Source of the DNA: Candidatus Azambacteria bacterium RIFCSPLOWO2_01_FULL_44_84 | Lineage (GTDB): Bacteria > Patescibacteriota > Minisyncoccia > UBA10092 | Assembly (NCBI GenBank): GCA_001774075.1 | Contig: MEYR01000004.1 | Coordinates: forward strand, 1 to 39,476 | Length of the DNA: 39,476 nucleotides | Reading direction: 5' to 3' | Shown here: piece by piece, positions 7,992 through 38,692 of the stretch | Layout: each line of letters starts with the position of its first letter | Position numbering within the stretch: position 1 is the first letter of the stretch | The notes under the pieces: generated by a model | What the model was told of the DNA's origin: nothing | Database searches by the model: none | The model's input: only the letters and a program-made list of their open reading frames with translations | Position numbers and translations under genes: made by a program

Positions 7992-8182
7992 TTACAGTTT
8001 CTGATTGAGTTACTCATCCCACCCCGATTGTCTTTCCGAACCGGGTGTTCTCTTGCTCCAGCGGCAAGAGCCACCACTGCTCTCTCGGCTCAAAACTTCG
8101 CCTGCGGCGAAGACCAAGCTTTTTCGCCTCCGAGAGCTTCTCCAAGACAACCGGGTGGGCTTCATTAATTAGTTTTTAAAAT

Positions 8183-8350
8183 GAGGCGACTAGATGTAAT
8201 TTTTAGCAGGCTACTTTTGCGAGCGGCCAAGGTCTCCGATAAATATCGGAGGAGCGAGAAAAAGTGATCCGAGCCGACGGGCTCGGAGAGTTACTGAGCG
8301 AGTCTCGGGGGGATGAGCGAGGGGTGCTAAAAAATACATCTAGTCGCCTC
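8183..8350 (+). mobile_element. MITE-like element with about 25-bp terminal inverted repeats, copy 1
   Basis: Ends are 'gaggcgactagatgtaatttttagca' and 'tgctaaaaaatacatctagtcgcctc'. The interior aligns to the reverse complement of 14339-14495. Confidence 0.8.
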
Positions 8351-8438
8351 CTTCTACCAGTAAGTTGCATTTTCTCAAATTTTATGGCATTTTAATGGCA
8401 AATTCCGGTTCATTGATAATTCGAAACAAGGGAAGGCA

Positions 8439-12247: not shown

Positions 12248-14371
12248 TTAATTTTGTTTTAGAGTTTCTACCGCCTCGCTAAGCATCTGGCAATATAAAT
12301 TAAGACCGATTGCCGAAATGTGGCCTGACTGCTCTCTGCCCAAAATATTGCCCGCGCCTCTGATTTCCAAATCTTGCAAGGCGATATCATCGCCGGCGCC
12401 CAGATCCTGATGCTCCTGAAGCGCCAAAAGCCTCCGTTTGGCTTTATCTCCCGCCCCGTTAGAAGCCGCTCTGCCGGAAGCGCGGCTACGATCGTCTTGG
12501 GACGATCTGCTTCTAACGGGGTCAAATTTTTTTGATTGATACAGGAAATAAGCGTAGGCCTGGGCGTTTGACCTGCCGATCCGGCCTCTTATTTGGTGGC
12601 TTTGAGAAAGCCCCAAACGGGAGGCGCTGTCGACGATTAATGTATTGGCATTCTGAAAATCAAGGCCGTTTTCGATAATGCTTGTCGCGAGAATCATCTG
12701 GATTTCGCCGACGTGGAATTTTTTCATTGTTTCTATTATCTGTTTTTCGGACAGCCGCGCGTGAAGTATCCCGATTTTGAGGTCTGGTTTTATTTTCAGC
12801 AGGCGCCTTTTCACCAACTCTATAGTTTCAATGCGGTTATGAAGATAATAGATTTGACCACTGCGTTCCAGCTCAAAATCAATCGCGTCCCTGATAACTT
12901 TCCGGGAGTAAGGCAAAACGAAAGTTTTTATCGCGAGGCGGCCGGGCGGCGGAGTTTTGATCTGGCTTACGTCCTGCAGCGAAGAGAGCGCGAGATAAAG
13001 CGTGCGGGGGATGGGCGTGGCCGACAAGTTTAGGATGTCGATTTTGGGGTTCAACGACTTAAGTTTTTCTTTTTGCTTAACGCCGAATCGCTGTTCCTCG
13101 TCTATTATCAAAAGTCCTCCCTTTTGGGGGAAAAGATCCGCCAGGTCTTTTGAGAGCAAACGATGAGTGCCGATGACGATGTCAATCTTGCCGTCTTTGA
13201 TTTTTTTAATGACCTCATGCTGTTCCTGTTTTGGTGTCAGGCGGGAGAGCCGCGCGACCATAATCGGAAAACGGCTGAATCTTTTTGAGAAAGTTTCAAA
13301 ATGCTGTTCGCAAAGAATAGTGGTCGGCGTCAGAACCGCCACCGGCAATCCTGAAAGCACCGCTTTGAAAGCGGCTCTCATAGCAACCTCGGTTTTGCCG
13401 AAACCGACGTCGCCGCACACAAGCCGGTTCATCGGCCGTTCTTTTCTAAGGTCAGCGCTGATTTCTTCCAGAGCGCGGATTTGGTCTTCGGTTTCTATAT
13501 ATTCGAATTCTGTAGCGAAATATTTTTCTTGCGCTTCGTCTCCTAGGACCGGTTGTCTTTGAGCCATTTCTCTTTTGGCGTAAAGAGCGATTAGTTCCTG
13601 AGCCAGCTTTATCGTTTCTTCTTTTATTCTTTTTTTGGTATTGAACCAAATCTGGCTGCCCAGGCGGTGAATCTGAGGCGTTGCGAACCCCAAATAAGGC
13701 GACAGTTTGTCAGCTTTAACAAATGGCACATAAAGCGTGTCTGGCGCCGCGCCCGGCCGCGGCGCTCCGTATTCAATTATGAAAAAATCAGAACCGTTTT
13801 GGTCGTTTGAAATTTTGGCTTTGTTTGGAATTTGTAATTTGGGCTTTGTGGTTTCATTTTCCGCGGCAAAGCCGCGGAAAATGCCTATTCCATGGTCGAG
13901 GTGGACGACATAATCGCCGGGCTTGTATCTTTCTTCTATTTTTGATTTTTTGAGACGAGCCAGCGTCGCCGATTCTTTTTCGGCGGCGGTGAGTTTAATA
14001 TCGCTTATTGTTTCGATGATATTGCCAAGCCAATCAATCTTTATGGGCATGACGGCATTTATCGGGAAGACGTCAATACTTCCGCCGAGTTGTGAAAATT
14101 CGCCCCTCGCTCCCAGATAAGAAACTCTTTCATATCCCAAATCGGTAAGCCGCCGCAGTACTTCGGAGATTTTAACGCTTTGGCTAGTTTCCAGAAACAG
14201 GGTGTTGTCTTGCCACCAGGAGTTGGTTTTGGCATGGGTTTTTATTTTTTCAAAATTTTCCTGAAACCATAAAAGCCCCTTCTCCAAAAATGAGGGGGTG
14301 ATTCCGGCAATCAGGATTTCTTGATTTGTTTTCATATCAGGCGACCAAATCTGCTTTTTAGCACCCTTCAC
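12248..14371 (-). CDS. mfd: transcription-repair coupling factor, compact form
   Basis: RID/CarD-like 'GDYVVHLDHGIGIF', 'GDVGFGKTEVAMRAA', 'IIDEEQRFG', 'QIRGRIGRS', TRG motif 'LEIRGAGNILGREQSG'. The GTG at 14371 has a GGAGG SD 5 nt upstream, inside repeat 14339-14495. The ATG at 14335 is the alternative start. Confidence 0.9.
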   Translation of the reverse strand: MKGAKKQIWSPDMKTNQEILIAGITPSFLEKGLLWFQENFEKIKTHAKTNSWWQDNTLFLETSQSVKISEVLRRLTDLGYERVSYLGARGEFSQLGGSIDVFPINAVMPIKIDWLGNIIETISDIKLTAAEKESATLARLKKSKIEERYKPGDYVVHLDHGIGIFRGFAAENETTKPKLQIPNKAKISNDQNGSDFFIIEYGAPRPGAAPDTLYVPFVKADKLSPYLGFATPQIHRLGSQIWFNTKKRIKEETIKLAQELIALYAKREMAQRQPVLGDEAQEKYFATEFEYIETEDQIRALEEISADLRKERPMNRLVCGDVGFGKTEVAMRAAFKAVLSGLPVAVLTPTTILCEQHFETFSKRFSRFPIMVARLSRLTPKQEQHEVIKKIKDGKIDIVIGTHRLLSKDLADLFPQKGGLLIIDEEQRFGVKQKEKLKSLNPKIDILNLSATPIPRTLYLALSSLQDVSQIKTPPPGRLAIKTFVLPYSRKVIRDAIDFELERSGQIYYLHNRIETIELVKRRLLKIKPDLKIGILHARLSEKQIIETMKKFHVGEIQMILATSIIENGLDFQNANTLIVDSASRLGLSQSHQIRGRIGRSNAQAYAYFLYQSKKFDPVRSRSSQDDRSRASGRAASNGAGDKAKRRLLALQEHQDLGAGDDIALQDLEIRGAGNILGREQSGHISAIGLNLYCQMLSEAVETLKQN
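12454..12521. repeat. 68-nt multi-hairpin element embedded in frame in mfd
   Basis: Outer 13-bp stem 'ccccgttagaagc'/'gcttctaacgggg' encloses hairpins 'agccgc..gcggct' and 'gatcgtc..gacgatc'. It encodes the extra 'PVRSRSSQDDRSRASGRAASNG'. Confidence 0.75.
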
Positions 14372-14495
14372 TCATCCCTCCGAAACTCGCTCAGTGGCTC
14401 TCCTCGCCAGTCGGCTCGGATCACTTTTGCTCGCTCGGCTTCGCCTCCTTGGCCGCTCGCAAAAGTAGCCTGCTAAAAACCACATCTGATCGCCT
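14339..14495 (-). mobile_element. MITE-like element with about 25-bp terminal inverted repeats, copy 2 (inverted relative to copy 1)
   Basis: Ends are 'aggcgaccaaatctgctttttagca' and 'tgctaaaaaccacatctgatcgcct'. 'ccttggccgctcgcaaaagtagcctgcta' is the reverse complement of 8207-8235. Confidence 0.8.
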
Positions 14496-15818: not shown

Positions 15819-15927
15819 ATAAAAATATATTATCAGAAGCCATATCAAGAAGCCAGTCGGCTATCTATAATTTGCTTTATTTAAGCCAAAATTTGCTATT
15901 GCAATTGGCTAATTTTTATGATAAAAT

Positions 15928-16235
15928 CAGGAAGTGAAAATTGGACTACCCTCCTAAATTCTTTTGCCCGATTAATCGGTGTTGGGCTAATCATGGTTTC
16001 TCTAACTTACAAAAAGAGCCTGCGCTCTAATGAAGAATTTGGAGGGCAAAAATGCCAGGAAGTAGAAATTCGACAAATTCATTTTTGTCCTTAAAATTCT
16101 TTATTAAAACTCAAGATATATTTTGTGTATAGCGTACACTACAGTGTCAATCTAGAAAAAACGGACAAAAAGAATTTTTAAGGATGGGTCGAATTTTCAC
16201 TTCCTGGAATGAATTTGTCCAATTTCTACTTCCTG
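15928..16235 (+). mobile_element. 308-bp composite repeat, copy A
   Basis: Interleaved inverted motifs: 'caggaagtgaaaattggac' (15928), 'ccaggaagtagaaattcgacaaattcat' (16055), 'gtcgaattttcacttcctgg' (16188), 'aatgaatttgtccaatttctacttcctg' (16208). The right-hand 196 bp or so is near-identical to the reverse complement of copy B. Confidence 0.9.
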
Positions 16236-16250
16236 ATAAAATTTTAGACA

Positions 16251-16814
16251 ATGAAAGAGGCAATGCGTAATTTTTTTGGCTTTATCTGGGAACTTTTTAA
16301 GATCGCCGTCATTGCGTTGGTGCTGGCGGGGCTTGCCCGTTATTTTATTTTCCAGCCGTTTTTCGTGAAAGGCGCTTCCATGGAGCCGAATTTTGACGAT
16401 GGCCAATACTTGATAGTTGATGAGCTAAGTTATTATTTCCGCACTCCTGAAAGGGGCGAAGTGATTGTTTTTAAGTATCCTTTAGACACCCGCACTTACT
16501 ATATCAAAAGGATAATAGGGCTTCCCGGGGAGACGGTTGAGATTAAATCCGGACAGGTGAATGTTTATAATGACGAAAACCCCAAAGGTTTTGTTTTGAA
16601 TGAGGCTTACTTGCCACAAGGCCTCGCGACCGATGGCAATGTCAAACAGCGCCTCAATAGGGATGAATATTTTGTTCTTGGCGATAACAGATTGTCGTCT
16701 TCGGATTCCCGGCGCTGGGGGGTTTTGCCAAAAAGCGATATTGTTGGAAGGGTGTTTGTAAGGGTCTGGCCGGTGGATACTTTTGAATTACTCAATCAGG
16801 CGCCGGCGTATTAG
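16251..16814 (+). CDS. lepB: signal peptidase I
   Basis: 'GASMEPNF', 'YIKRIIGLPGETV', 'VLGDNRLSSSDSRRWG'. Confidence 0.93.
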   Translation: MKEAMRNFFGFIWELFKIAVIALVLAGLARYFIFQPFFVKGASMEPNFDDGQYLIVDELSYYFRTPERGEVIVFKYPLDTRTYYIKRIIGLPGETVEIKSGQVNVYNDENPKGFVLNEAYLPQGLATDGNVKQRLNRDEYFVLGDNRLSSSDSRRWGVLPKSDIVGRVFVRVWPVDTFELLNQAPAY

Positions 16815-16896
16815 ATTAATTTTGAAATTGATTTGGAAATTAGAACTTAAAAATTGATTAAAAATTGAAAATTTGAAATTAAAAATTTAGTTATTT

Positions 16897-18249
16897 ATGT
16901 CACGAAAAGGAAAATCAAAATTATTTCAGGTACCTCGCGGTATGCGCGACATTCTGCCGGCCGAGCAAAAATATTGGGAGCGTTGCGTCAAAATCGCTAA
17001 AGAGTTGGCGCTCTATTACGGTTTTGAACTGATAGAAACCCCGATTCTTGAAAATGCCGAGCTTTTCGCTAAGGGCGTCGGCGCGGGCACTGACATTGTC
17101 GAAAAAGAGATGTACACCCTGCGCACCAAGGGAGGCGATCTTCTTGCTCTGCGGCCCGAAGGAACGCCCCCAATCATCCGCTCTTATCTTGAAAACGGCA
17201 TGGTCAGCCAGCCGCACCCGGTCAAACTTTTTTATATTGGACCGATGTTTAGGCATGACGCGCCTCAAGCCGGACGCTATCGTGAACATCACCAGATCGG
17301 TTTTGAAACTATCGGCGATCCGGACCCGGTGATTGACGCCCAGATAATTCAGCTTATCTACGCTATTTTAACCGAACTGGGCCTAAAAGGCCTAACTATC
17401 CAGATAAACAGCATCGGCGACAAACAATGCCGCCCGAAGTTCAGAGACGAGCTAAAAAATTTCTACCGGAATCGAGTTAACCGGCTTTGCAAGAACTGCA
17501 AAAGGAAATTCAAAGAAAATCCCTTGCGTCTTTTCGACTGCAAGGAGGCTGATTGCGTCGCTTTGAGGAGTCTGGCGCCGCATTTAATAGACCATCTTGA
17601 TGAAAATTGCCATAACCACTTTAAGTCAGTCCTTGAATTTCTTGATGAACTAGGGTTGCCATACAGTTTAAATCCTTATTTAGTGAGAGGGCAGGATTAC
17701 TATACGCGTACGGTTTTTGAAGTTGTTCCCGAAGAGGTAGTAGGGGCACAGTCGGCTTTGGGAGGGGGCGGACGTTTTGATGGCCTTATTGAACTGTTAG
17801 GCGGCAAACCTACGCCGGCTGTGGGCGGGGCTTTGGGACTTGAACGGGTCATTGCCGAAATACAACGAAGGGAACTAAAAATCGCGGCTACAAAGCCGCG
17901 TGTCAGAATTTTCTTGGCTCAATTGGGAGATTTGGCAAAAAGAAAAAGCTTAAAACTTTTTGAAGACTTCAGGAAAGCCGGCGTCCAAGTTGCCGAATCG
18001 TTCGGTCGTGATTCGATAAAAGCCCAACTTAGGGTGGCTGACCGGCTTGGCGCCGACATTTCTTTGATTATGGGCCAAAAAGAAGCGCTTGATAATACCG
18101 TAATTTTGCGGGAAATGCAGTCCGGAACGCAAGAAACGATTCCACTGGCAAAGATCATCGATGAGGTTAAAAAGCGGCTCAAAAAGATTGGGCCTGCTCG
18201 GCGGTCGATTAGTAATTTGACTGATGAGGAAATTGATGATAAAAAATAG
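16897..18249 (+). CDS. hisS: histidine--tRNA ligase
   Basis: 'VPRGMRDILP', 'LALRPEGT', 'YIGPMFRHDAPQAGRYREHHQIG', 'GGGGRFDGL'. Confidence 0.96.
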   Translation: MSRKGKSKLFQVPRGMRDILPAEQKYWERCVKIAKELALYYGFELIETPILENAELFAKGVGAGTDIVEKEMYTLRTKGGDLLALRPEGTPPIIRSYLENGMVSQPHPVKLFYIGPMFRHDAPQAGRYREHHQIGFETIGDPDPVIDAQIIQLIYAILTELGLKGLTIQINSIGDKQCRPKFRDELKNFYRNRVNRLCKNCKRKFKENPLRLFDCKEADCVALRSLAPHLIDHLDENCHNHFKSVLEFLDELGLPYSLNPYLVRGQDYYTRTVFEVVPEEVVGAQSALGGGGRFDGLIELLGGKPTPAVGGALGLERVIAEIQRRELKIAATKPRVRIFLAQLGDLAKRKSLKLFEDFRKAGVQVAESFGRDSIKAQLRVADRLGADISLIMGQKEALDNTVILREMQSGTQETIPLAKIIDEVKKRLKKIGPARRSISNLTDEEIDDKK

Positions 18250-18260
18250 GTTCTGGAACC

Positions 18261-18599
18261 ATGGAGTGCATTTTTTGCAAAATAGCCAATAAAGAGATTT
18301 TTTCAGAGATAATCGCCGAAGATGAGGCATTCGTTGTTTTCAAAGATATAAAGCCGAAAGCGCCAGTTCACCTCTTGTTCATCCCTAAAACGCATTTAGG
18401 TCCGGTGAATACTCTTAGACTAAAAGATACCGAGCTTGTTGGTCGGCTGATACTTAAGGCGAAGGAAGTCGCGCAAAGTTCGGGAATTTCCGAAGATGGT
18501 TACCGATTAATTTTTAATATCGGCCGAGATGCTGGCATGGAAGTTGAACATCTCCACCTGCATCTGTTAGCAGGCAAACCTCTGAAATTGGTAAATTAG
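18261..18599 (+). CDS. HIT-family (HinT-like) nucleotide hydrolase
   Basis: 112 aa; histidine triad 'HLHLHLL'. Confidence 0.9.
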   Translation: MECIFCKIANKEIFSEIIAEDEAFVVFKDIKPKAPVHLLFIPKTHLGPVNTLRLKDTELVGRLILKAKEVAQSSGISEDGYRLIFNIGRDAGMEVEHLHLHLLAGKPLKLVN

Positions 18600-18606
18600 T
18601 AACTTT

Positions 18607-18837
18607 ATGGCAGTTGAAGTCAGAAAAAAAGAAAAAGAAACCACAGCGTCTTTATTGAGGCGCTTTTCCAGGCGTGTTCAGCAAAGCGGCGTCTTATTGC
18701 GCGCCCGCCGTACTCGTTTTTACGAACCCCCGAAGTCGAAGCGCAAGAAAAGAATTGACGCTTTACGGCGAGCGACGATGACCAAAGAACATGAAAAATT
18801 AGTTAAGCTCGGTAAGATAGAAGAAAGACGAAGATAA
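18607..18837 (+). CDS. rpsU: 30S ribosomal protein S21
   Basis: 76 aa, basic; 'SLLRRFSRRVQQSGVLLRARRTRFYEPPKSKRKKR'. Confidence 0.88.
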   Translation: MAVEVRKKEKETTASLLRRFSRRVQQSGVLLRARRTRFYEPPKSKRKKRIDALRRATMTKEHEKLVKLGKIEERRR

Positions 18838-18840
18838 ATT

Positions 18841-18958
18841 ATCATAATCCGAATGATTGGAATCTTTATCCGAATAACCCGAATATGCAGAAACCTAAAC
18901 TAAAATTCATTCGGAATATTCGGATATTAGGATTATAAATTCGGATTATTAAGCGAAG
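18841..18958. repeat. word-repeat hairpin spacer ('ccgaat' / 'attcgg')
   Basis: Left arm 'ataatccgaat..tatccgaata..acccgaata'; right arm 'attcggaat..attcggata..attcggattat'. Confidence 0.8.
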
Positions 18959-18961
18959 CGT

Positions 18962-19456
18962 ATGAATTTAAACCAAAAACTGACCGAAGACATGAAAGCC
19001 GCGATGAAAAGCGGCGATTCACAAACGCTCTTGACCGTTAAACTTCTGATCAGCGCGATTCACAATAAAGAAATAGAAAAAAGAACCAAGCTCTCCAAAC
19101 AAGTCACCGAAGCGCGGGAACTCGAAGAAAAATCCCGTCTGACCGAAGAAGAAATTATCGAAGTGATCTCAAGCGAAGTAAAAAAACGCAAAGACTCCAT
19201 TGCCGCTTACGAATCCGCGAGACCTGACTTGGCGGAAAAAGAAAAACAGGAATTGGAAATCCTAAAAAAATACGCGCCGAAGGAATTGTCCGGGGAAGAG
19301 GTAAGAATAATCGTAAAAGCAAAAATTATCGAGACCGGCGCTTCTTCCACCAAAGATTTTGGCAAAGTGATGGGCAGGGTAACTCAAGAAACCAAGGGAC
19401 GGGCCGATGGAGTTCTGGTAAAGAAGATCGTTGAGGAAGAATTATCCCAACTATAA
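18962..19456 (+). CDS. GatB/YqeY-domain protein
   Basis: 164 aa; 'LTEDMKAAMKSGD...TVKLLISAI' and 'DFGKVMG' fit the YqeY pattern. Confidence 0.82.
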   Translation: MNLNQKLTEDMKAAMKSGDSQTLLTVKLLISAIHNKEIEKRTKLSKQVTEARELEEKSRLTEEEIIEVISSEVKKRKDSIAAYESARPDLAEKEKQELEILKKYAPKELSGEEVRIIVKAKIIETGASSTKDFGKVMGRVTQETKGRADGVLVKKIVEEELSQL

Positions 19457-19563
19457 ATTTTAAATTTCTAATTTTAAATTTTCAATGAATTTCTAATGAT
19501 TTAATGTTTAAAAATTAAGAAATTAGAATTTGATTCAAAATTTAAAATTCAAAATTGGAAATT

Positions 19564-20082
19564 ATGCCGCATGAGATTCTTGTATATAATAAAACGAAGT
19601 TTCTGATACCCCGTAAATTCGTTGTTAATGTTATTTTGAAATCGCTTAAAAACCTCGGAATTAAACAGCCAGTCGAAATGGCTGTTTTAGTTGTCGGCGA
19701 CAAGAAAATTCGCCGGCTGAACCGAATCTGGCGAAGAAAAAACAGGGCCACTAATGTATTGTCTTTTCCACAGATGACAAAAACCGAGTTGAAAAAATCG
19801 GTTAATTTTGGCTCTGGAAGTCGGAAATTGGGAAAACCTGCCCGTCCGGAAGGCGGGTTTGATTTGCAGTCAAAGTCCGTGATATCATTAGGACAAATAT
19901 TGATAGATCCGCACCAAATTCTGTCGGGAATAAAAAAGAATCGAAAAGATTTCGAAAAAGAATTGATAAAACTTGTTATCCACGGCCTTCTGCATCTTCT
20001 CGGATACGATCATAAGACAACAAAAGAAGGGCGTGAGATGGCGGCACGAGAAGAGAAAATTTTAAAAAATATCAAATTATAA
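19564..20082 (+). CDS. ybeY: rRNA maturation endoribonuclease YbeY
   Basis: ATG at 19564 preferred to the TTG at 19555. 'TNVLSFP' and metal site 'HGLLHLLGYDH'. Confidence 0.9.
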   Translation: MPHEILVYNKTKFLIPRKFVVNVILKSLKNLGIKQPVEMAVLVVGDKKIRRLNRIWRRKNRATNVLSFPQMTKTELKKSVNFGSGSRKLGKPARPEGGFDLQSKSVISLGQILIDPHQILSGIKKNRKDFEKELIKLVIHGLLHLLGYDHKTTKEGREMAAREEKILKNIKL

Positions 20083-20111
20083 CTTTTCACTTTAAATTTT
20101 TAATTTCTATT

Positions 20112-21332
20112 ATGACTCGCGAACAAATAATCGTAGGATTGGATGTCGGCACGACGGCTGTGAAAACGGTTGTTGCCCAGAAATCTCGGACACAACTTTT
20201 GCCTCAAATCGTCGGCTGGGGTTCTGCCGACAGTCGCGGTATTAAAAAGGGAGTGGTTGACGACATTGAAGAAGCGGCTTTAGCTATAAGCGAATCCTTT
20301 GAAAAAGCGAGAGCTCACGCGGGCATTAAGTTTGATGAAGCGATTGTCAGCGTCGGCGGCGATCACGTTATCGTTAGGCCGTCGCGCGGTATCGCAATGG
20401 TTTCACGCGCCGACCGGATTATTTCAAACGAAGACATTGAACGCGCTTTGGCGCAGGCGTCATCTTTAACACCCATCCCGAACAGGGAATTGCTGCATAA
20501 TCTGCCCCAGGCCTGGAGCGTTGACGACGATCGGGCAGTCAAGGATCCTCTTGGCATGACAGGAAGCCGTTTGGAAGTTAACACCCTTTTGATTGAAGGT
20601 TTTTCCAAGCCCATAAAAGATTTACGAAAAGCGGCGGACCTCGCCGGAATACGCGTAAAAGAAATAGTTTTTACGCCGCTGGCCGCTTCACGCGCCATCC
20701 TAAACCGGAAACAGCGGGATTTAGGAGCTTTGGTCTTGGATATCGGTGGCGGCACGACGAGTCTCGCGGTTTTTGAAGAAGGGGACATCACTCACGCGAT
20801 GGTCCTGCCTTTTGGTTCTCATTATGTAACGCGGGACTTAGTCAAGGGACTTGTTATAGACGCCGAATCCGCCGAAAAACTGAAAAAGGCCCATGGTTCG
20901 GCATTTGTTGAATCAACCAGTTCCAGAGACATGGTTGACTTGAAAAAATTCGGGGGGGATAAAACCGTTGAGCGCAAAGTAATAGCTGAAATTTGCGAAG
21001 CGAGGTTTTCAGAAATTCTTGAGCAGGTCCAAAAACAGGTTAAGTCGCTGAAAAAATCAATTTATCTGCCGGGAGGCGTGGTGCTGACTGGCGGTGGCTC
21101 AAAGATTCCGAGGCTTGATAAACTGGCAAAAAAGGAGCTCGGTTTGCCGACGGCTCGCGGAGTTGCCGAAGAAATCATCGGGCCAGAAGAAATTCTCCAG
21201 GATTCTTCTTATGCTACGGCTTTGGGATTGGTGATGTGGGGATTTGACGAGGGAAAGGTATTGGTATCCCAAAACGATGAAGAAGGTTTTTGGAGGGGTC
21301 TGATGAACTGGCTGAAGAAATTTGCCCCGTAA
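20112..21332 (+). CDS. ftsA: cell division protein FtsA
   Basis: 'GLDVGTTAVKTVV', 'DIGGGTTSLAVF'; immediately upstream of ftsZ. Confidence 0.93.
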   Translation: MTREQIIVGLDVGTTAVKTVVAQKSRTQLLPQIVGWGSADSRGIKKGVVDDIEEAALAISESFEKARAHAGIKFDEAIVSVGGDHVIVRPSRGIAMVSRADRIISNEDIERALAQASSLTPIPNRELLHNLPQAWSVDDDRAVKDPLGMTGSRLEVNTLLIEGFSKPIKDLRKAADLAGIRVKEIVFTPLAASRAILNRKQRDLGALVLDIGGGTTSLAVFEEGDITHAMVLPFGSHYVTRDLVKGLVIDAESAEKLKKAHGSAFVESTSSRDMVDLKKFGGDKTVERKVIAEICEARFSEILEQVQKQVKSLKKSIYLPGGVVLTGGGSKIPRLDKLAKKELGLPTARGVAEEIIGPEEILQDSSYATALGLVMWGFDEGKVLVSQNDEEGFWRGLMNWLKKFAP

Positions 21333-21341
21333 AGACTTTCT

Positions 21342-21440
21342 CCTACCAATTACGAATGATCGCGAATTACGAATAAATAAAATAAATTTATAATTGGCAT
21401 TTGAAATATTCGTAATTCGGTGTTATTCGTAATTAGTAGG
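21342..21440. repeat. CCTAC-(ATTACGAAT)n hairpin element, copy 1
   Basis: 'cctaccaattacgaat..cgaattacgaat' pairs with 'attcgtaattcgg..attcgtaattagtagg'. The right end 'gtaggaa' sits 8 nt before the ftsZ ATG. Confidence 0.85.
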
Positions 21441-21448
21441 AAATTTAT

Positions 21449-22645
21449 ATGCCTCACATTAAACCGGACATAGAAACATTCGCGCGTATTAAAGTGGTCG
21501 GTGTCGGCGGCGGCGGCGGCAACGCCGTTACCCGCATGGTTAACGCTCAAATAAAGGGCGTTGATTTTATTGCCGTCAATACCGATGCGCAGGATCTGCA
21601 CCATACAAAGGCCCAGGTGAAAATCCACATAGGCAAAAATTTGACCCGGGGTCTCGGCGCGGGGATGAACCCGGACGTCGGCCGGCAGGCGGCGGAAGAA
21701 AACCGCGACGAAATTCAGGACGCCCTAAGGGGGGCTGACCTTGTTTTTATCACCTGCGGTCTTGGCGGCGGAACCGGTTCGGGCGCCTCGCCGGTCATTG
21801 CCGACGCGGCTAAAGACGTCGGTGCTTTGGTAGTGGCAGTTGTTACAAGACCCTTTGGTTTTGAAGGAGCCCAGCGGACCAAGATAGCCGATGAGGCGAT
21901 GACACAGCTGCGCGACCGCGTCGACACTCTCATTACGATTCCGAACGATAAAATCCATAATTTAATTGATAAGAATACGAGCATTTTGGATGCTTTTGGC
22001 ATAGTTGATGACATTTTGCGTCAGGGCGTTCAGGGCATTGCCGATCTGATAACTTACCCCGGCATTGTTAATGTGGATTTTGCCGATATAAAGGTAATCA
22101 TGTCCGAAGCCGGGTCGGCTCTTTTGGGCATCGGCAAGGCCTCGGGTGAAGACCGCGCAGTAAACGCGGCTAAGTCCGCTATTAACTCTCCTTTACTTGA
22201 TGTTTCTATTGACGGCGCCCGGGGTGTTTTGTTCAATGTTTCCGGTGGCGCGGACCTAACAATGACCGACATAAACGACGCCGCGAAAGCTATTACAGAG
22301 TCAATCGATTCCAACGCCAAAGTCATTTTTGGCGCCTTGCATGATACTCGCCTGAAGAAAGGTGAGGTTAAAGTGACTGTAATCGCCACCGGATTTGGAA
22401 GTAATAGAAGTAATAGCAATGGGAATGAGCCGCTTTTTAAAAGTGAATCGCAGCTCAAGCCGCCCTTTAAACCCGCACTGATCCGGCCGGTCATATCGTT
22501 GGATATAAATGGCAATGGTAAAAAATCGGAAGTAATCAAAGGTATTAACGTCTCTAAAAAACCCGAAGTCCAAATCATTGATGAGGAAGAAGACGAGTGG
22601 GATGTACCGGCATTTTTAAGAAGAAAAAAGGATGTTAAGAAATAA
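21449..22645 (+). CDS. ftsZ: cell division GTPase FtsZ
   Basis: 'GVGGGGGNAV', 'GGGTGSGASPVIA', C-terminal 'DVPAFLRR'. Confidence 0.98.
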   Translation: MPHIKPDIETFARIKVVGVGGGGGNAVTRMVNAQIKGVDFIAVNTDAQDLHHTKAQVKIHIGKNLTRGLGAGMNPDVGRQAAEENRDEIQDALRGADLVFITCGLGGGTGSGASPVIADAAKDVGALVVAVVTRPFGFEGAQRTKIADEAMTQLRDRVDTLITIPNDKIHNLIDKNTSILDAFGIVDDILRQGVQGIADLITYPGIVNVDFADIKVIMSEAGSALLGIGKASGEDRAVNAAKSAINSPLLDVSIDGARGVLFNVSGGADLTMTDINDAAKAITESIDSNAKVIFGALHDTRLKKGEVKVTVIATGFGSNRSNSNGNEPLFKSESQLKPPFKPALIRPVISLDINGNGKKSEVIKGINVSKKPEVQIIDEEEDEWDVPAFLRRKKDVKK

Positions 22646-22654
22646 GGGCTTCCT

Positions 22655-22725
22655 CCTACGAATTACGAATGCGGTCGAATTACGAATTTATAATTTGTAA
22701 TTCGCTAATATTCGTAATTAGTAGG
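22655..22725. repeat. CCTAC-(ATTACGAAT)n hairpin element, copy 2
   Basis: 'cctacgaattacgaatgcggtcgaattacgaat' and 'attcgctaatattcgtaattagtagg'. 'taggattgcATG' leads into comEC. Confidence 0.85.
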
Positions 22726-22730
22726 ATTGC

Positions 22731-24092
22731 ATGCCTAAATCAAAAGTTTTTGTTTTGATATTGATGAGTTTTGTGGGAGGCATATTTCTGTATTCATTTT
22801 TAAAAACTCCGCCGATGATTATCGGCGGAGTTTTTGTTTTCGGCGTTTTCATATTACTGAGAGGCGCTTGCCGCAGGTTTAAAGATTTAGAGTTCGTTTT
22901 CGGAATCGTTTTTGGCATTTGCATTTTGATTTTCGGTTTTGGACTCTGGCGCAGCGCAGTGGTTTTTGATAACACAGGGCGAGGGATAACTTCTTATGCG
23001 AGCGGCGACGCTCTAGAGCTTTCCGGTTTGGTATCAGAAGAGCCGGATGTCAGGACAGACGCGGTCTATTATGTTTTAGAAACGCCTGACTTTGGCAAGG
23101 TTCTTTTTAAAACGCCACTCTGGCCGGCATACTCTTACGGCGATTTACTGACGATTAAAGGGATAATTCGTCGGCCGGAAAACTTCGATGACTTTGATTA
23201 TAAAAATTATCTTGCAAAACGGGATATATTTTGGGTTGGACAAAATTTCAAAATTACAAAAGTTGATTCATCCGGCCGCGTGACTCTTTTTGGACGTTTG
23301 TTTTCCTACAAAGGCGCGTTTGTTGCCAGCGTCAATAAAATTTTAAGCGAACCGCACGCTTCTTTTCTAAACGCGCTACTTTTGGGGGCAAGGCGCGGTT
23401 TGCCAAAAGACTTGCTCGAAGCTTTTAATAAAACTGGAACAAGCCATATCGTCGCCATTTCCGGCTACAATATCTCTCTTATCAGTGTCTTAGTTTTCAA
23501 TTTCTTGGCGTATTTGCTTGTTCCGAGGCGTGCCAGTATTTGGATAGTCGGCGCTGGCATAGTTTTCTTTACTGTTATTTCCGGCGCTAGCGCTTCTGTC
23601 GTGCGCGCCGCTATTATGGGGAGCCTTCTGATTATCGCTCGGGCTCGCGATCGGATTTATGGCGTTAGCAATGCGTTGGTTTTAGCCGGAGCGTTAATGC
23701 TCTTTTTAAATCCGCGTCTTTTACGCTATGACGCGGGGTTTCAACTGTCCTTTCTCGCCACTTTGGGGCTTATTTATATTTCGCCATATTTTAATAAATG
23801 GTTTTCGACATTGCCCAATATATTTTCTTTTCGCGCTAATTTGGCGGCGACTCTTTCGGCTCAAGCGGCGGTTTTTCCTGTTTTACTTTTCGGATTCGGA
23901 CAAGTTTCTCTTGTCGCGCCCCTGGCCAATGTTTTAATCTTACCCGCTATCCCTCCGACAATGTTTTTCGGTTTTTTGGCGGGCATTGCCGGCTTCGTGT
24001 CGGTCGGCGCCGCGTCGGTAATAGCGATTCCGGCTTGGATTTTACTTTCTTGGCAACTTTTTATTGTTAAGTTTTTGAGCGGACTATTATGA
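22731..24092 (+). CDS. comEC: ComEC/Rec2 competence channel (N-terminal and membrane domains only)
   Basis: 453 aa, polytopic; signature 'TGTSHIVAISGYNISL'. Confidence 0.88.
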   Translation: MPKSKVFVLILMSFVGGIFLYSFLKTPPMIIGGVFVFGVFILLRGACRRFKDLEFVFGIVFGICILIFGFGLWRSAVVFDNTGRGITSYASGDALELSGLVSEEPDVRTDAVYYVLETPDFGKVLFKTPLWPAYSYGDLLTIKGIIRRPENFDDFDYKNYLAKRDIFWVGQNFKITKVDSSGRVTLFGRLFSYKGAFVASVNKILSEPHASFLNALLLGARRGLPKDLLEAFNKTGTSHIVAISGYNISLISVLVFNFLAYLLVPRRASIWIVGAGIVFFTVISGASASVVRAAIMGSLLIIARARDRIYGVSNALVLAGALMLFLNPRLLRYDAGFQLSFLATLGLIYISPYFNKWFSTLPNIFSFRANLAATLSAQAAVFPVLLFGFGQVSLVAPLANVLILPAIPPTMFFGFLAGIAGFVSVGAASVIAIPAWILLSWQLFIVKFLSGLL

Positions 24093-25042
24093 AGCGTTAT
24101 TTTATTTTCCTGGCGGCAGTTGCGCTTTTTACGGCAGTTATTTGGGGCCTGATTTTTGTAAAAACTCAAGGCGTCCTTTTGGAAGTGATTTTTTTTGATG
24201 TAGGCCAGGGCGATTCTATTTTAATAAAAACGCCTTACGAGCAAACAATGCTGGTTGACGGCGGTCCCGATAATAGAGTTCTAAATAAATTGGGAGACCA
24301 TTTGCCGCCGCTTCAAAAAAGAATCGATATTGTTATTCTCACACATCCTCACGCGGACCATGTTACCGGGCTTGTTGAGGTTCTGAAAAGATATGACGTC
24401 GGAGTGGTCATTATGAGCGCCGCCTATCTGAAGACCGATATATACGGCGAATTTTTAAAAACGCTGCGCGACAAAAATACGTCTATAATATTCGCTAAAG
24501 CTGGTCAGGCGCTTCACTTCGGCCCGAAAATGGATGTTGATATTTTATGGCCGGAAAGAAATAAGCTCGACTTATTCGGCGGATATAATGAAAGCTTCGG
24601 CATGGCCGGCAATGACGTGAATGACGACTCCGTGGTTACGAAGATGAGTTTTGGCGATTTCGCTTTGCTCATGACCGGAGACGCCACATCGGCGGTAGAA
24701 AAACAGCTTTTGGCTTACGGTAACGGCCTGCGGGCGGATATATTGAAAGTGGGCCATCATGGCTCGAAATATTCTTCTTCTTTGGAGTTTCTAAAGTTAG
24801 TTCAGCCTCAAGCCTCGATAATAGAGGTCGGTGCGCGTAATCGCTATGGTCATCCGGCGCCGGCGACTCTGGATCGATTAAAAAATTTTTCGCCTCAAGG
24901 AGCGGACCAGCTTCTCAAGTCTGAAACTTTCGGAGTCGAACGACCTCAGGCTGAAAATATTTCGATATTCCGCACCGATAAAGACAGTGACATCAAAGTA
25001 CTAAGCAATGGTTACACGACGAGCATCTTTAAGGAAAAATAA
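24089..25042 (+). CDS. membrane-anchored MBL-fold hydrolase (ComEC C-terminal domain as a separate ORF)
   Basis: 317 aa. ATGA overlap with comEC, N-terminal TM, 'HPHADHVTGL', 'GHHGS'. Confidence 0.85.
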   Translation: MKRYFIFLAAVALFTAVIWGLIFVKTQGVLLEVIFFDVGQGDSILIKTPYEQTMLVDGGPDNRVLNKLGDHLPPLQKRIDIVILTHPHADHVTGLVEVLKRYDVGVVIMSAAYLKTDIYGEFLKTLRDKNTSIIFAKAGQALHFGPKMDVDILWPERNKLDLFGGYNESFGMAGNDVNDDSVVTKMSFGDFALLMTGDATSAVEKQLLAYGNGLRADILKVGHHGSKYSSSLEFLKLVQPQASIIEVGARNRYGHPAPATLDRLKNFSPQGADQLLKSETFGVERPQAENISIFRTDKDSDIKVLSNGYTTSIFKEK

Positions 25043-25066
25043 ACCACACATTAATAATGTGTGGTT
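25042..25066. terminator. bidirectional hairpin between convergent genes
   Basis: Perfect palindrome 'aaccacacatta a taatgtgtggtt'. Confidence 0.6.
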
Positions 25067-25748
25067 AGGTTGGCAAAATCCGTTTTGGTTGCGGATCTAA
25101 TTCTCCGGATTGCTGCCGGTTCAGAAAATTAATGTAGCGCTGAAGACTGTCGAGCGCGCTGATGGAAAAATTATATCGGACCCCGAGGAATTCTTCCTTA
25201 GCGTGGTAGCCGCCAAGGAAAGCCGCGGTGATACAGCCAAGCTTCTCCGCTTCTTTTATGAAGTGGGGACTATCGTCAATGAAAATCGCTTCTTCCGGTT
25301 TTGCCGGAGCAAGTTCCCGGACCAGATTCCCTATAGTCTCGAGTTTTTGTACATGGTCCATGCCGGCGTAAATTCTAGAAATATAATTTTTTAAGCCGTA
25401 CTTCTCAAGAACGTTCTCGATGATTTTGGTAATTGCCATGCTGACGATAATGACGGTTATGTTTCTTTCATGAAGCCATCGGAGCGTGTCTTCGACGTGG
25501 TCGCAAAGAGGTGCAAAAGGTTTTTGTCTTAATTTCTCTTCGTAAACTCGCCAGATTTCTTCGCGGCTTTGTGTGATGCCCATTTCCCGGTAAAGAGACA
25601 TATAGTCCGGCCGGTAAAGTTTGCGCCAGTTGGCTTCTCCGAAAGGTTGGGCGCCGAAGTGCGCCAGCATCTCGTCAAGCGCCTCGCTGTTAACTCTGTA
25701 GCTTTTGTATAAAGTGCCGTCCCAATCAAAAATAACGAGTTTGATCAC
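25065..25748 (-). CDS. HAD-superfamily hydrolase (phosphoglycolate phosphatase-like)
   Basis: 'MIKLVIFDWDGTL' (DxDGT motif I) and a late 'FIDDS'. Confidence 0.85.
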   Translation of the reverse strand: MIKLVIFDWDGTLYKSYRVNSEALDEMLAHFGAQPFGEANWRKLYRPDYMSLYREMGITQSREEIWRVYEEKLRQKPFAPLCDHVEDTLRWLHERNITVIIVSMAITKIIENVLEKYGLKNYISRIYAGMDHVQKLETIGNLVRELAPAKPEEAIFIDDSPHFIKEAEKLGCITAAFLGGYHAKEEFLGVRYNFSISALDSLQRYINFLNRQQSGELDPQPKRILPT

Positions 25749-26153
25749 TTAAATATCCTTCTGGAAGTACTGATTGAGCCTTTGACTCAAATCAATCAAA
25801 ACATTTTCAAAACTCTTGTGAGGAGTCGGTTTAACATCAGCCGTATTTATGATGACAAACTTCTTAGGGCGCTGGAGGCGCAGGATGATGAAAAACATCC
25901 CAAGATCAAAAACAAAACCGATGCTGTTCTTATCATACCAAATGTGAACTTCATCGGCTTCGAGCATTCTTTCGCGGTTATAGTCGCAAATCAGAAAGCC
26001 GACCCTGTCGGTATTCTGATAAGGGTTGTCTTGGTCGGGCCAATAAACCTCGTATCCGTTTGATTCCATATAATAAACATATCCGTCTATCTTGTTCCTT
26101 ACTTTTTTACTGACGTTTCTTACCGGGCAAATCACGAAGATCTTCTTTCCCAT
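25749..26153 (-). CDS. nucleoside 2-deoxyribosyltransferase-like protein
   Basis: 134 aa. 'KIFVICPVR', 'EADEVHIWYDKNSIGFVFDLGMFF' resembles the Nuc_deoxyri_tr2-type pattern. Called from memory of the family, not from a search. Confidence 0.5.
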   Translation of the reverse strand: MGKKIFVICPVRNVSKKVRNKIDGYVYYMESNGYEVYWPDQDNPYQNTDRVGFLICDYNRERMLEADEVHIWYDKNSIGFVFDLGMFFIILRLQRPKKFVIINTADVKPTPHKSFENVLIDLSQRLNQYFQKDI

Positions 26154-26268
26154 TTCCCGCCTCTATAGATGTTAACGAGCTTTGCCGCTAAATTAAGCTA
26201 TAAAAAGCTCATTGTCAATTAAGACGAACTATGATATTTTTCCTTTACTAAATTAATTTTCTAAAATC

Positions 26269-26865
26269 ATGGCGACAAAAAATCCAAAGGAAGAAAAAAC
26301 GCTAGTGCTGATAAAGCCTGACGGCGTCAAGCGGGGCTTGATCGGTGAGGTCGTTGCCCGCATTGAAAAGCGCGGCCTAAAAGTAATCGCCATTTCAATG
26401 GTTAAGCCGAGTCGCAAGCAGATTGACGAGCACTATCCGAAAGATTTGAAATGGGTGAAGCGTCTCGGTGAAAAGTCGCTTGCCACCTACGCTAAATACG
26501 GCTGGGACCCGAAGAAAGAAATGGGCACCGACGACCCGATGAAAATCGGCAAGTCCGTCCGCAACTGGATTCTGGACTTTATGACCTCCGGTCCCGTCGT
26601 AAAAATCGTCGTGGAAGGGATTCACGCGGTTGATATGGTAAGGAAATTGGTTGGCAATTCCATTCCGGCTTTAGCCGAAATGGGCACCATAAGAGGGGAC
26701 TTTTCGGTTGATTCGGCTGCGTTGGCTAACAAGGGTAAGCGCGCGGTCCATAATCTGATTCACGCGTCTGAAACGCCCGAGGAGGCAAGGCACGAATTGA
26801 AATATTGGTTTAAAGCCGGCGAGATTTTTGAATACAAACGCGCGGAAGAAGACATTATGTTCTGA
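26269..26865 (+). CDS. ndk: nucleoside diphosphate kinase (long form)
   Basis: 'EKTLVLIKPDGVKRGLIGEVVARIEKRGLKV'; active-site His in 'NLIHASETPEEA'. Confidence 0.88.
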   Translation: MATKNPKEEKTLVLIKPDGVKRGLIGEVVARIEKRGLKVIAISMVKPSRKQIDEHYPKDLKWVKRLGEKSLATYAKYGWDPKKEMGTDDPMKIGKSVRNWILDFMTSGPVVKIVVEGIHAVDMVRKLVGNSIPALAEMGTIRGDFSVDSAALANKGKRAVHNLIHASETPEEARHELKYWFKAGEIFEYKRAEEDIMF

Positions 26866-26970
26866 AAATCTCAAATCTCAATTTCCAATTTCTAATAAAA
26901 TCTCAAGCTTCAAATCTCAAATTTATGCTTTTGGTCATTGGGATTTGAGGTTTTATTTGACATTGGGATT

Positions 26971-26997
26971 TTGACATTGGGATTTTTGTCGTATAAT
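26971..26997 (+). promoter_or_regulatory. promoter-like element (perfect hexamers, short spacer)
   Basis: TTGACA (26971-26976), 15-nt spacer, TATAAT (26992-26997). Confidence 0.4.
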
Positions 26998-27003
26998 GTA
27001 CTT

Positions 27004-27192
27004 GGCTTTGGGAGCGGTTCTTTTTGAAGATTTTGGGCTAAAAATATATATTAGGGATTCCTATATCGCTCCGGCGCGTGCGCCGGAGTTGCGGACACCC
27101 ACTTGGATTTAATTCCAATAATCTTCCTAAAGAATTTCCTGAGGCTATTAAAATCCCCGCCGACATCTGCGAAGTTGTGGCGGGGATTTTTT
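27004..27192 (+). ncRNA. candidate small RNA of about 190 nt, unknown class
   Basis: Bounded by the promoter-like element and an intrinsic terminator. No ATG-initiated ORF. Internal palindrome 'ctccggcgc gt gcgccggag' at 27069-27088. Confidence 0.3.
27150..27192 (+). terminator. rho-independent terminator
   Basis: 'atccccgcc' (27153-27161) pairs with 'ggcggggat' (27179-27187), followed by T6. Confidence 0.65.
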
Positions 27193-27500
27193 AATTCTTG
27201 ACCAGGAAGTAGAAATTGGACAAATTCATTCCAGGAAGTGAAAATTCGACCCGTCCTTAAAAATTCTTTTTGTCCGTTTTTTCTAGATTGATACTGTAGT
27301 GTACGCTATACACAAAATATATCTTGAGTTTTAATAAAGAATTTTAAGGACAAAAATGAATTTGTCGAATTTCTACTTCCTGGCATTTTTGCCCTCAAAT
27401 TCTTTATTACATCAGATAAGCTTTTTACCATGTTTTAGAAATTATAATGGTTAAACATTGAATCGCCGGGCAAAAGAATTTGAAAGGGCGTGTCCAATTT
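27193..27500 (-). mobile_element. 308-bp composite repeat, copy B (inverted relative to copy A)
   Basis: The reverse complement aligns end to end with 15928-16235. 27193-27388 is near-identical; a stretch of about 70 bp (about 27400-27465) is divergent. Confidence 0.9.
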
Positions 27501-27578
27501 TCACTTCCTGGTTGACGAATTTTTTTTATCTGTTATTTTGAAGGCGTTCTTTAATCTTTACCAAAACGGAGCAGAATC

Positions 27579-32213: not shown

Positions 32214-32337
32214 TTTGCGAATTACCAAAATTTTCAATTTTCAATTTTAAATTTTCAATCAATTTTTAATGATTCAATTTTAAAATTTTCTAATTAGAAA
32301 TTGATTAGAAATTAGAAATTGGAAATTAGAAATTATC

Positions 32338-34440: not shown

Positions 34441-34445
34441 TAGCC

Positions 34446-34510
34446 CCTACGAATTACGAATTTTACCGAATTACGAATTCGTAATTCGAACCCCATTCGT
34501 AATTGGTAGG
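34446..34510. repeat. CCTAC-(ATTACGAAT)n hairpin element, copy 3
   Basis: 'cctacgaattacgaattttaccgaattacgaattcgtaattcgaaccccattcgtaattggtagg'. Confidence 0.85.
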
Positions 34511-36722: not shown

Positions 36723-36795
36723 TTCGTTTTTCGGGTAAAGTCGCTAAAATGCCCCCGAATTGGGGGTATTTAGTTAGATAGCATTGATTCATTCT

Positions 36796-36867
36796 CCTAC
36801 TCCTACGAATTACGAATATTTTCGAATTACGAATATTCGCAATTCGTCATAATTCGTAATTGGTAGG
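36796..36867. repeat. CCTAC-(ATTACGAAT)n hairpin element, copy 4
   Basis: 'cctactcctacgaattacgaatattttcgaattacgaat' pairs with 'attcgcaattcgtcataattcgtaattggtagg'. Confidence 0.85.
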
Positions 36868-36877
36868 GATAAAATTT

Positions 36878-37507: not shown

Positions 37508-37621
37508 AACCTTATAACAATAATTTTAAATTTTTAATTTTAAATTTCGAATCAAATTCGAATTATTTAATGTTTGAAACATTCAGACATTTAAAATTCA
37601 TTTAAAATTCAAAATTTGAAA

Positions 37622-37656
37622 TTGAAAATTAAAGAAAACCCCCGCAGTTGCGGGGG
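37622..37656 (-). terminator. rho-independent terminator for the minus-strand cassette
   Basis: The minus strand reads 'cccccgc aact gcggggg' followed by 'ttttctttaatttt'. On the plus strand no T-run follows the hairpin. Confidence 0.6.
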
Positions 37657-38549: not shown

Positions 38550-38563
38550 GGTCTACTCCTCCT

Positions 38564-38692
38564 TTATGCGCTACCAGAGCGCTTGCAGTTTTTCCAGTTT
38601 TTCAGTAGCAAGTAACCGAGAATTAGCCAGCCTCCAGGCAGAATCAGCAGAGGGATTATCCACCACTTATACCACAGCTTCTGTTTGGGCAT
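38564..38692 (-). CDS. possible 42-aa hydrophobic peptide (or simply the 5-prime UTR of the downstream ORF)
   Basis: MPKQKLWYKWWIIPLLILPGGWLILGYLLLKNWKNCKRSGSA. Its stop lies inside the SD region of the 283-aa ORF. Its own SD (GGAG, 1 nt from the ATG) is poorly spaced. Confidence 0.3.
   Translation of the reverse strand: MPKQKLWYKWWIIPLLILPGGWLILGYLLLKNWKNCKRSGSA

Follow-up and report, generated by a model that had tools for sequence, protein, structure and literature searches.

Nested miniature transposable elements in inverted orientation around the lepB–ndk genes of a Candidatus Azambacteria contig, and related small elements that encode a GIY-YIG nuclease

Introduction

Among the small repeats described from bacteria, the closest to those treated here are the Correia elements (CREE) of Neisseria, the RUP elements of pneumococci and the Nezha elements of cyanobacteria. 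These are non-coding, 60–155 bp in size and present in many copies. They carry terminal inverted repeats of 20–45 nt, are accompanied by a short target duplication and would form a long hairpin if transcribed; they occupy intergenic positions near gene starts, and their ends are able to form promoter-like hexamers. The same properties were found in the units that make up two long repeats in a 39,476-bp stretch of DNA from Candidatus Azambacteria bacterium RIFCSPLOWO2_01_FULL_44_84 (contig MEYR01000004.1, positions 1–39,476, forward strand), the whole of which is called the window below. A first-pass annotation of the window had described the two repeats as inverted 308-bp composites bracketing a block of core genes, lepB to ndk, that could flip.

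Each of the 308-bp repeats consists of two non-coding transposable elements of one family (miniature inverted-repeat transposable elements, MITEs), one nested within the other. This nested-MITE reading, taken together with the observed association of the family with a GIY-YIG nuclease gene, is held with high confidence. The apparent invertible core-gene cassette is thereby replaced by two ordinary but recent mobile-element insertions in promoters.

Structure of the repeats

The motif CAGGAAGTRRAAATTSGAC has eight exact matches in the window, at 15928 (+), 16056 (+), 16188 (−), 16217 (−), 27203 (+), 27232 (+), 27364 (−) and 27492 (−). The expected mean was 0.09, and none of 100 dinucleotide-preserving shuffles reached eight. 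A repeat search of the window gave inverted arms at 16039–16252 and 27186–27399 (214 nt, 95% complementary), so that the existence of the two inverted repeats is confirmed. Copy A lies at 15928–16235, as first reported. Copy B was placed 10 bp off: it lies at 27203–27510 (27202–27511 with the terminal C/G) instead of 27193–27500, and the bracketed DNA measures 10,965 bp, not 10,957 bp.

By pairwise alignment the copies share identical termini and about 197 nt (16039–16235) at approximately 98% identity; some 65–70 nt of copy A (roughly 15970–16035) could not be aligned with copy B. Inside the inner element the copies differ by substitutions at 16146 and 16185, and directly to its left by one substitution and a 1-nt indel. 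Relatives were sought by scanning one genome per species and, in addition, metagenome contigs; L-numbers denote the loci retrieved. The features of the two copies, with their target-site duplications (TSDs) and adjoining open reading frame (ORF), are listed below.

15922–15926, unstranded: left TSD of composite A, TAAAA, within the -10-like hexamer of TTGCAA-N17-TAAAAT
15927–16236, plus strand: composite copy A, 310 bp including the terminal T/A, an outer element of ~151 bp with a nested inner element
15928–15946, plus strand: site 1, the GTGA-type end of outer element A, CAGGAAGTGAAAATTGGAC, found as a motif match
15970–16035, unstranded: variable centre of outer element A, not alignable with copy B; centres differ among other family members too
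16051–16054, unstranded: left AATG TSD of inner element A, a direct repeat
16055–16207, plus strand: inner element A, 153 bp, CCAGG...CCTGG with TTCGAC at both ends, aligned over its full length with L080 12985–13136
16208–16211, unstranded: right AATG TSD of inner element A, a direct repeat
16217–16235, minus strand: site 4, the GTAG-type end of outer element A, which holds the -35-like TTGTCC of the hybrid promoter-like site 16215–16242
16237–16241, unstranded: right TAAAA TSD of composite A, 10 nt ahead of the lepB ATG at 16251
27198–27201, unstranded: left TTGA TSD of composite B, a direct repeat
27202–27511, minus strand: composite copy B, 310 bp, inverted relative to A
27231–27383, minus strand: inner element B, 153 bp, with 2 differences from inner A, flanked by CATT at 27227–27230 and CATT at 27384–27387
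27512–27515, unstranded: right TTGA TSD of composite B, forming the -35-like TTGACG of TTGACG-N16-TATTTT upstream of the ORF at 27579

The canonical unit of the family is about 150 bp long and is bounded by 20-nt terminal inverted repeats, CCAGGAAGT(AG/GA)AAATTSGAC, with a 4–5-bp TSD outside them. One end is of the GTAG type and continues as AAATTCnTTTTTGCCCTYAAATTCTT; the other is of the GTGA type and continues as nnGCCCTTYAAATTCTTTTGYCCG (GCCCTTYAAATTCTTTTGYCCG in un-nested relatives). In the window the outer ends share TTGGAC and the inner ends share TTCGAC. Both outer units contain the same inner unit, at an AATG located 25–28 nt from the outer GTAG end. The inner GTAG end is on the left, so the inner element is oriented opposite to the outer one.

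Duplications were present at all three levels, namely AATG/AATG around the inner unit in both copies, TAAAA/TAAAA around composite A and TTGA/TTGA around composite B. Once the inner unit had been cut out together with one copy of its TSD, both outer A and outer B aligned over their full length with un-nested relatives, and the inner unit did so as well. Un-nested elements of 150–155 bp, each with one GTAG and one GTGA end, were found at L076, L080 (two elements), L097, L104 and L108. The minimum-energy fold predicted for the 310-nt composite encloses one hairpin in another, with site 1 paired to site 4 and site 2 to site 3 (−108 kcal/mol, z = −8.5).

The sites had originally been matched by their RR letters, 1 with 3 and 2 with 4, as two interleaved pairs. 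The TSDs, the end types, the un-nested relatives and the predicted fold together establish a simple nest instead. The interleaved units, 15928–16206 and 16056–16235 (281 bp and 182 bp), were rejected; neither is flanked by a TSD, and un-nested relatives nearly always pair a GTAG with a GTGA end.

The feature in the window agrees with MITEs in every property that could be tested. At 151 and 153 bp for the units and 310 bp for the composite, the sizes fall under the limit of about 600 bp, and the sole ORF in the composite (58 aa) is a gene-caller artefact in one assembly. The ends are exact over 19–20 nt, extended to approximately 45 nt in the 150-bp class, and the TSDs AATG, TAAAA and TTGA adjoin them. 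The likening of the units to MITEs was therefore apt: they are small and non-coding, with terminal inverted repeats and TSDs. The suggestion that the four sites of each copy bind one protein is likewise plausible, since all four are ends of one element family. Dispersal and insertion polymorphism, the remaining properties, are documented in the next two sections.

Occurrence in other Patescibacteria

In the one-genome-per-species scan the 19-mer occurred as close inverted pairs only in metagenome-assembled genomes (MAGs) of Patescibacteria (Azambacteria, Harrisonbacteria, Parcubacteria and unclassified), at lengths of 61–136 bp. Forms of 61–80 bp were found in named Azambacteria and Parcubacteria MAGs, and the 136-bp form in a Harrisonbacteria MAG. 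Further elements, of 61–331 bp, came from the metagenome scan. About 30 distinct un-nested relatives of 61–155 bp were recovered in other Patescibacteria, and truncated solo ends were seen upstream of a gene in L095, L110 and L111. Perfect direct repeats of at least 4 bp (4–5 bp) abut CCAGG...CCTGG in 24 of 34 two-ended elements, the chance for each being 1/256; the commonest are TTGA/TCAA, NATG/CATN and CTTG/CAAG. Single matches to the 19-mer in Flavobacteriaceae and Nitrospiria lie in conserved coding context and were set aside as unrelated, as was a single-ended match in coding sequence at L081. Viral contigs gave no match to the family, and no further copy turned up in the window or in another 19 kb of DNA flanking it.

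In the source metagenomes the element ends are covered approximately 5–10 times as deeply as the genome around them (391 against 38 in run X1, for instance) and are joined to many other flanks and other interiors. The nearness to gene starts pointed out for both window copies is marked in the family: coding members lie on start codons, and so do several non-coding members, namely those at an infB-like gene (L036), an ABC-F gene (L037), hrcA (L119) and a 231-codon ORF (L090).

Self-nesting is recurrent in the family. At L122 (2266–2790) the left end repeat of a coding element is split by two MITEs of 71 bp (TSD AAAA) and 128 bp (TSD CTGCG), and the outer GATG duplication is intact. Separately, a groundwater contig (L104) carries two identical 150-bp members, at 1732–1881 and 5238–5387, inverted, with mirrored flanks and about 3.4 kb apart; this pair may be part of a larger inverted duplication that includes the MITE.

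Empty sites, gene order and promoters

The window is 100% identical to a groundwater scaffold of 133.6 kb, and its FtsZ is 71–75% identical to FtsZ of Candidatus Azambacteria. Pfam labels on 100%-identical contigs bear out the gene list from lepB to ndk and give the order Pth (minus strand), LepB, HisS, HIT, S21, YqeY, YbeY, FtsA, FtsZ, ComEC, a metallo-beta-lactamase-fold protein, HAD, NDK and DUF6899.

Two relatives lack the elements. In L123 (FtsZ 92% identical) the ndk–DUF6899 spacer is 317 nt, against 713 nt in the window, and has a single TTGA; the empty site reads ...TTTTTTAATTTTCTGTAGAGA-TTGA-CAAAATC... (...GAGATTGACAAAA...) and lies inside a TTGACA-N17-ATAATA promoter-like site. In L124 (FtsZ 75%) the pth–lepB spacer is 43 nt, against 402 nt. 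Order and orientation in L124 are those of the window (pth(−) lepB hisS HIT rpsU yqeY ybeY ftsA ftsZ comEC ... ndk); the L123 contig starts at the HIT gene and agrees with the window from there to ndk. As both retain the window order without the elements, the arrangement is ancestral and the elements are later insertions. With the members found elsewhere and the raised depth of the ends, these empty sites complete the agreement with dispersed, insertionally polymorphic MITEs.

Both insertions fell in promoter-like sequence. Copy A split TTGCAA-N17-TAAAAT (15899–15927) at the -10 hexamer; its TSD restores TAAAAT beside lepB and the element end adds TTGTCC at 16-nt spacing, giving TTGTCC-N16-TAAAAT (16215–16242). 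Copy B split the TTGA of a -35-like TTGACG, and a full TTGACG-N16-TATTTT remains upstream of ORF 27579. That the element supplies promoters, as the first-pass annotation had supposed, is plausible from these consensus matches. Six metatranscriptome runs from the same studies contained none of the sequence. At the gathering threshold Rfam gave only a tRNA-Pro for the window; at E <= 1 the repeats matched only plant microRNA hairpin models, which signify a long hairpin and nothing more.

Coding members of the family

Coding relatives with the same ends are 305–331 bp long, and their sole content is a gene for a GIY-YIG nuclease of approximately 85–97 aa (Pfam PF01541). At L077 (217–547) the element is 331 bp with a 93-aa ORF, and at L103 (343–660) it is 318 bp with a 90-aa ORF. 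Both have the exact end repeats of the window, both are filled end to end by their ORFs, and both proteins match PF01541 above its cut-off (E = 9.2e-16 and 3.9e-19, respectively). The closest solved structures are those of the UPF0213 proteins 1zg2 and 1ywl, of unknown function.

The homologue set consisted of 731 proteins at E <= 1e-10, and N-termini were read in the best 120 of the 731. Nearly all of these 120 are 85–103 aa long, and those with a named source come from Patescibacteria lineages or unclassified MAGs. Four homologues were fetched together with their DNA, with the following gene contexts.

L119: hrcA, element, grpE; TSD TATG
L120: element, ileS; TSD TATG
L121: FtsA-like gene, element, unnamed gene of 396 aa; TSD AATG
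L122: element, peptidyl-prolyl isomerase gene; TSD GATG

All six coding elements examined as DNA (L077, L103 and these four) bear the family end repeats. At L119–L122 the host gene downstream has its start codon within the right TSD copy, and the left copy sets an ATG against the end repeat. Translated in frame, ATG followed by CCAGGAAGTGAAAATTCGAC gives MPGSENST. An N-terminus encoded by the end repeat was present in 68 of the best 120 homologues: directly after the initiator methionine in 55 (MPGSE.. or a form differing by one residue), behind a longer called N-terminus in 8, and as MKIR, which starts at a GTG inside the end repeat, in 5. Three of the fetched proteins had been called at an internal ATG; there, too, the repeat and the abutting ATG are present. 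The right-hand repeat is read through (...SRISTTW) in 3 of the 120. Coding element and MITEs of the same locus share an end-repeat variant, CCAGGTAGT throughout L119 and L122; L077, L103 and the window use CCAGGAAGT.

GIY-YIG sequences of other kinds were seen in three loci. At L105 (3400–3560) a degenerate remnant that has one end repeat directly adjoins a transfer RNA (tRNA) gene at its CCA end. At L110 (1560–2000), and identically at L095, a more distantly related GIY-YIG gene that lacks these end repeats is located within or between sequences resembling tRNAs. This suggests that other GIY-YIG lineages in these bacteria target tRNA genes.

Origin and mobilisation

Since the outer centres cannot be aligned and the inner units differ at only 2 of 153 positions, a single transposition of the finished composite as source of both copies is disfavoured. 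More probably the same inner unit entered the same AATG in two different outer units. The route would have been either targeted insertion or copying during repair, with one outer unit as donor to the other through homing or gene conversion. The latter would explain both the few differing flank nucleotides and an allele seen in public data. The public runs were available as Logan k-mer contigs of short reads, which break inside identical stretches of 50 nt to 197 nt and in which bubble-popping merges alleles. One contig of run X18 (window 16147–16411) has the copy B allele, C at 16185, joined to the lepB flank, which points to gene conversion, or an exchange of alleles, between copies A and B in one population or more. 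An apparent joint of opposite strands at 16042/16168 in such contigs reflects copy B sequence aligned to copy A. All eight ends are intact in the window, which suggests recent activity. The window copies would be passive derivatives, and their inverted arrangement incidental.

For mobilisation it is proposed that the GIY-YIG protein would recognise the 20-nt ends in trans and move coding and non-coding members alike, cutting the target with a 4–5-nt stagger. Coding copies would persist where an NATG target lends host translation signals while the host ATG is restored, the host gene keeping the downstream ATG copy and the element reading the upstream ATG plus end repeat. Whether the protein is the mobilising enzyme is judged close to evenly balanced, and certainly not better than that. 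The full proposal is tentative and a shade less secure: that the ~310-bp coding relatives would be autonomous transposons with the ~90-residue nuclease as transposase, inserting at start codons, where they would take over the ribosome-binding site and ATG of the host gene to have their own protein translated, and that the window units would be their non-autonomous MITEs. In the coding elements with ends identical to those of the window (L077, L103) the nuclease is the only product, and its transposase role is putative.

Several points weigh against this account of nesting and mobilisation. No GIY-YIG gene is present in the window or the 19 kb of added flank (59 kb), so that a cognate nuclease in this organism is hypothetical; nor was a transposition event or excision footprint directly observed. 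Ten of the 34 two-ended elements lack a perfect TSD. That two independent insertions should share both site and orientation is improbable without a specific target or repair copying. No GIY-YIG nuclease is known to act as a transposase, and those characterised leave short 3' overhangs, by which a 4–5-bp duplication is not obviously explained. A separate transposase encoded elsewhere could be the mobiliser, with the nuclease as passenger.

This last view, in which a conventional transposase (for example of the DDE type) moves the MITEs and the GIY-YIG gene is a frequent passenger or addiction module, is the alternative that survives best, although we consider it doubtful. TSDs of 4–5 bp and CC... 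ends are typical of DDE insertion sequences (IS1380, IS701 and IS5-like families), and no description of a GIY-YIG transposase was found in the open-access full-text literature. In the scanned loci, however, the end repeats never bound more than 331 bp or any transposase ORF. No transposase-bearing member of the family appeared in the genome-per-species, metagenome or viral-contig scans, and eight gene-context look-ups with called genes gave no transposase Pfam label. In hundreds of homologues the GIY-YIG ORF alone fills the coding element from one end to the other. Patescibacterial genomes are small.

The second alternative is that the arms of about 197 bp recombine, by a homologous or site-specific route, flipping the lepB–ndk block and creating heterogeneity in the population. 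Arms of this kind (214 nt at 95%, ~98% over 197 nt) would in principle support homologous recombination, possibly a rare inversion of the RecA type, and the copy B allele beside lepB in run X18 speaks for some exchange of sequence between the copies. That allele pattern cannot, however, be produced by a single crossover; gene conversion can produce it. All 24 LepB contigs and all 24 ORF 27579 contigs, short-read products of many independent assemblies, have one gene order, and relatives without the element agree with it in order and in orientation. The GC skew stays positive throughout and nowhere reverses locally. Called genes in the window plus the 19 kb of flank (~59 kb) carry no recombinase or transposase Pfam label, so that the search for a recombinase or transposase proposed earlier came back empty within that range. 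The block consists of complete housekeeping genes, nearly all co-oriented with their neighbours, and contains neither an alternative promoter nor a gene variant for inversion to switch; the repeats are fully accounted for as independent insertions with their own TSDs. The invertible-segment explanation is accordingly very improbable, and so is appreciable flipping of the 11-kb block, the central suggestion of the first-pass annotation.

Least probable of all is a reading in which the 308-bp units would not be mobile DNA but conserved modules of a cis-regulatory or structured-RNA kind (four operators for one regulator, or a selected hairpin RNA). In its favour, both copies lie in promoter regions and strong folds are predicted (z = −6.3 for the inner unit, −8.5 for the composite). 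Against it, orthologous spacers of relatives lack the units, TSDs flank them, and they recur in many genomes at loci unrelated to one another, with centres that vary. Folding follows automatically from the end repeats, the Rfam matches are sub-threshold plant microRNA hairpin models only, and the region was in no RNA run.

Other features of the window

A divergent 6S (SsrS) RNA gene is probably present at 26983–27192 (+). The RF00013 match at 27000–27151 is full-length and sub-threshold (28 bits against a gathering threshold of 46.4, E = 0.001). Identity to L123 is 94.7% over this stretch, compared with approximately 84% for the flanking genes; a promoter-like site, TGTCGTATAAT, lies upstream, and a hairpin with a T-run at 27153–27192. 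Copy B is inserted just past this candidate terminator, and one gene caller placed a 38-aa ORF in the 6S stretch.

A second repeat family of about 170 nt occurs at 8177–8356 and 14339–14495, with its own terminal inverted repeat (AGGCGACTAGATGTAATTTTTAGCA ... TGCTAAAAAATACATCTAGTCGCCT). Its two copies are 85–92% alike and inverted, bracketing ~6 kb from VWA/MoxR-cluster genes to mfd; they could be another MITE or a small-RNA gene. Palindromic elements of approximately 75–105 nt, CTCCTACGAATTACGAAT-N7-CGAATTACGAAT plus complement, are located at 21336–21441, 22651–22726, 34440–34510 and 36795–36868, directly upstream of ftsZ, comEC, the 34528 ORF and rplC. Their 3' end, AGTAGGA, falls 4–20 nt ahead of the start codon, a placement resembling that of a ribosome-binding site.

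Intergenic, AT-rich arrays that repeat every 8 nt (TAGAAATTGGAAATT...) and are in many cases palindromic lie at 16810–16896, 19456–19566, 32226–32334 and 37520–37630. In run X1 they stand at a depth of 1152–3471 against ~40 for the genome, which means that the motif is common to many organisms there. The array core, TAGAAATTGGA, is found inside the MITE end repeat as well. Between rplC and rplD, and on the opposite strand from them, is a proline-rich ORF of 283 aa with no Pfam match (37698–38549, minus strand); the overlapping interval 38001–39000 is 59% GC, against ~45% elsewhere, an odd break in the S10 ribosomal-protein operon.

Significance and comparison with known systems

The family is widespread in Patescibacteria, and its end repeats enclose only a minimal GIY-YIG gene. 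The coding elements sit precisely on the start codons of essential genes (grpE, ileS), and a peptidyl-prolyl isomerase gene likewise has one upstream. Should the nuclease prove to be the mobiliser, it would represent a new catalytic class among prokaryotic transposons, and the elements a previously undescribed, possibly the smallest, class of prokaryotic DNA transposon. The UPF0213-type GIY-YIG proteins, whose role is so far unknown, would gain a function, and the elements would illustrate how a selfish gene can find expression in a streamlined genome almost free of cost. The MPGSENST start, found in hundreds of annotated proteins, is a directly usable marker with which to put this to the test. 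For annotation the family matters because its ends are easily miscalled as ORFs or as N-terminal extensions. Neither MITEs of the Candidate Phyla Radiation nor GIY-YIG elements flanked by end repeats were found described in the open-access full-text literature, an absence that is not proof.

Programmed invertible DNA (Hin/Gin, fim, shufflons) resembles the locus in having inverted repeats that bracket a block of DNA. In the window there is no adjacent invertase. The arms are 310-bp copies of a mobile element and not recombination sites of 14–30 bp, and the 11-kb housekeeping block, seen in a single orientation, has no switchable promoter or alternative gene end.

GIY-YIG homing endonucleases (I-TevI, T4 Seg proteins) share the catalytic domain and selfish insertion by or in essential genes. 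A repair-mediated spread with co-conversion of flanks, which is possible for them, would fit the identical inner units in different outer units. They have long DNA-binding domains, however, and neither terminal inverted repeats nor TSDs. The family nucleases are the bare domain, ~90 aa and 85–103 aa among the homologues read, closest to UPF0213 proteins; they score only 19–24 bits against TIGR01453 (215 positions, cut-off 56), and their genes have end repeats and TSDs. An assignment to the I-TevI type does not fit them.

REP/REPIN sequences and their RAYT proteins (IS200/IS605-like, Y1) are alike in that a small nuclease-type gene is flanked by inverted sequences which are also dispersed as non-coding doublets, and in that a minimal protein would mobilise them in trans. 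RAYT is an HUH/Y1 enzyme that acts on single-stranded hairpins and gives no TSD, in contrast to the GIY-YIG domain (PF01541), the TSDs and the multi-copy coding units at start codons found here.

The Correia, RUP and Nezha elements remain the nearest in form. For them the presumed partner is a DDE insertion sequence, where one is known at all, whereas the sole coding partner here is a GIY-YIG nuclease of about 90 aa. The TSDs of the present family are 4–5 bp long and varied, with NATG and TTGA the commonest, instead of TA, and self-nesting is frequent.

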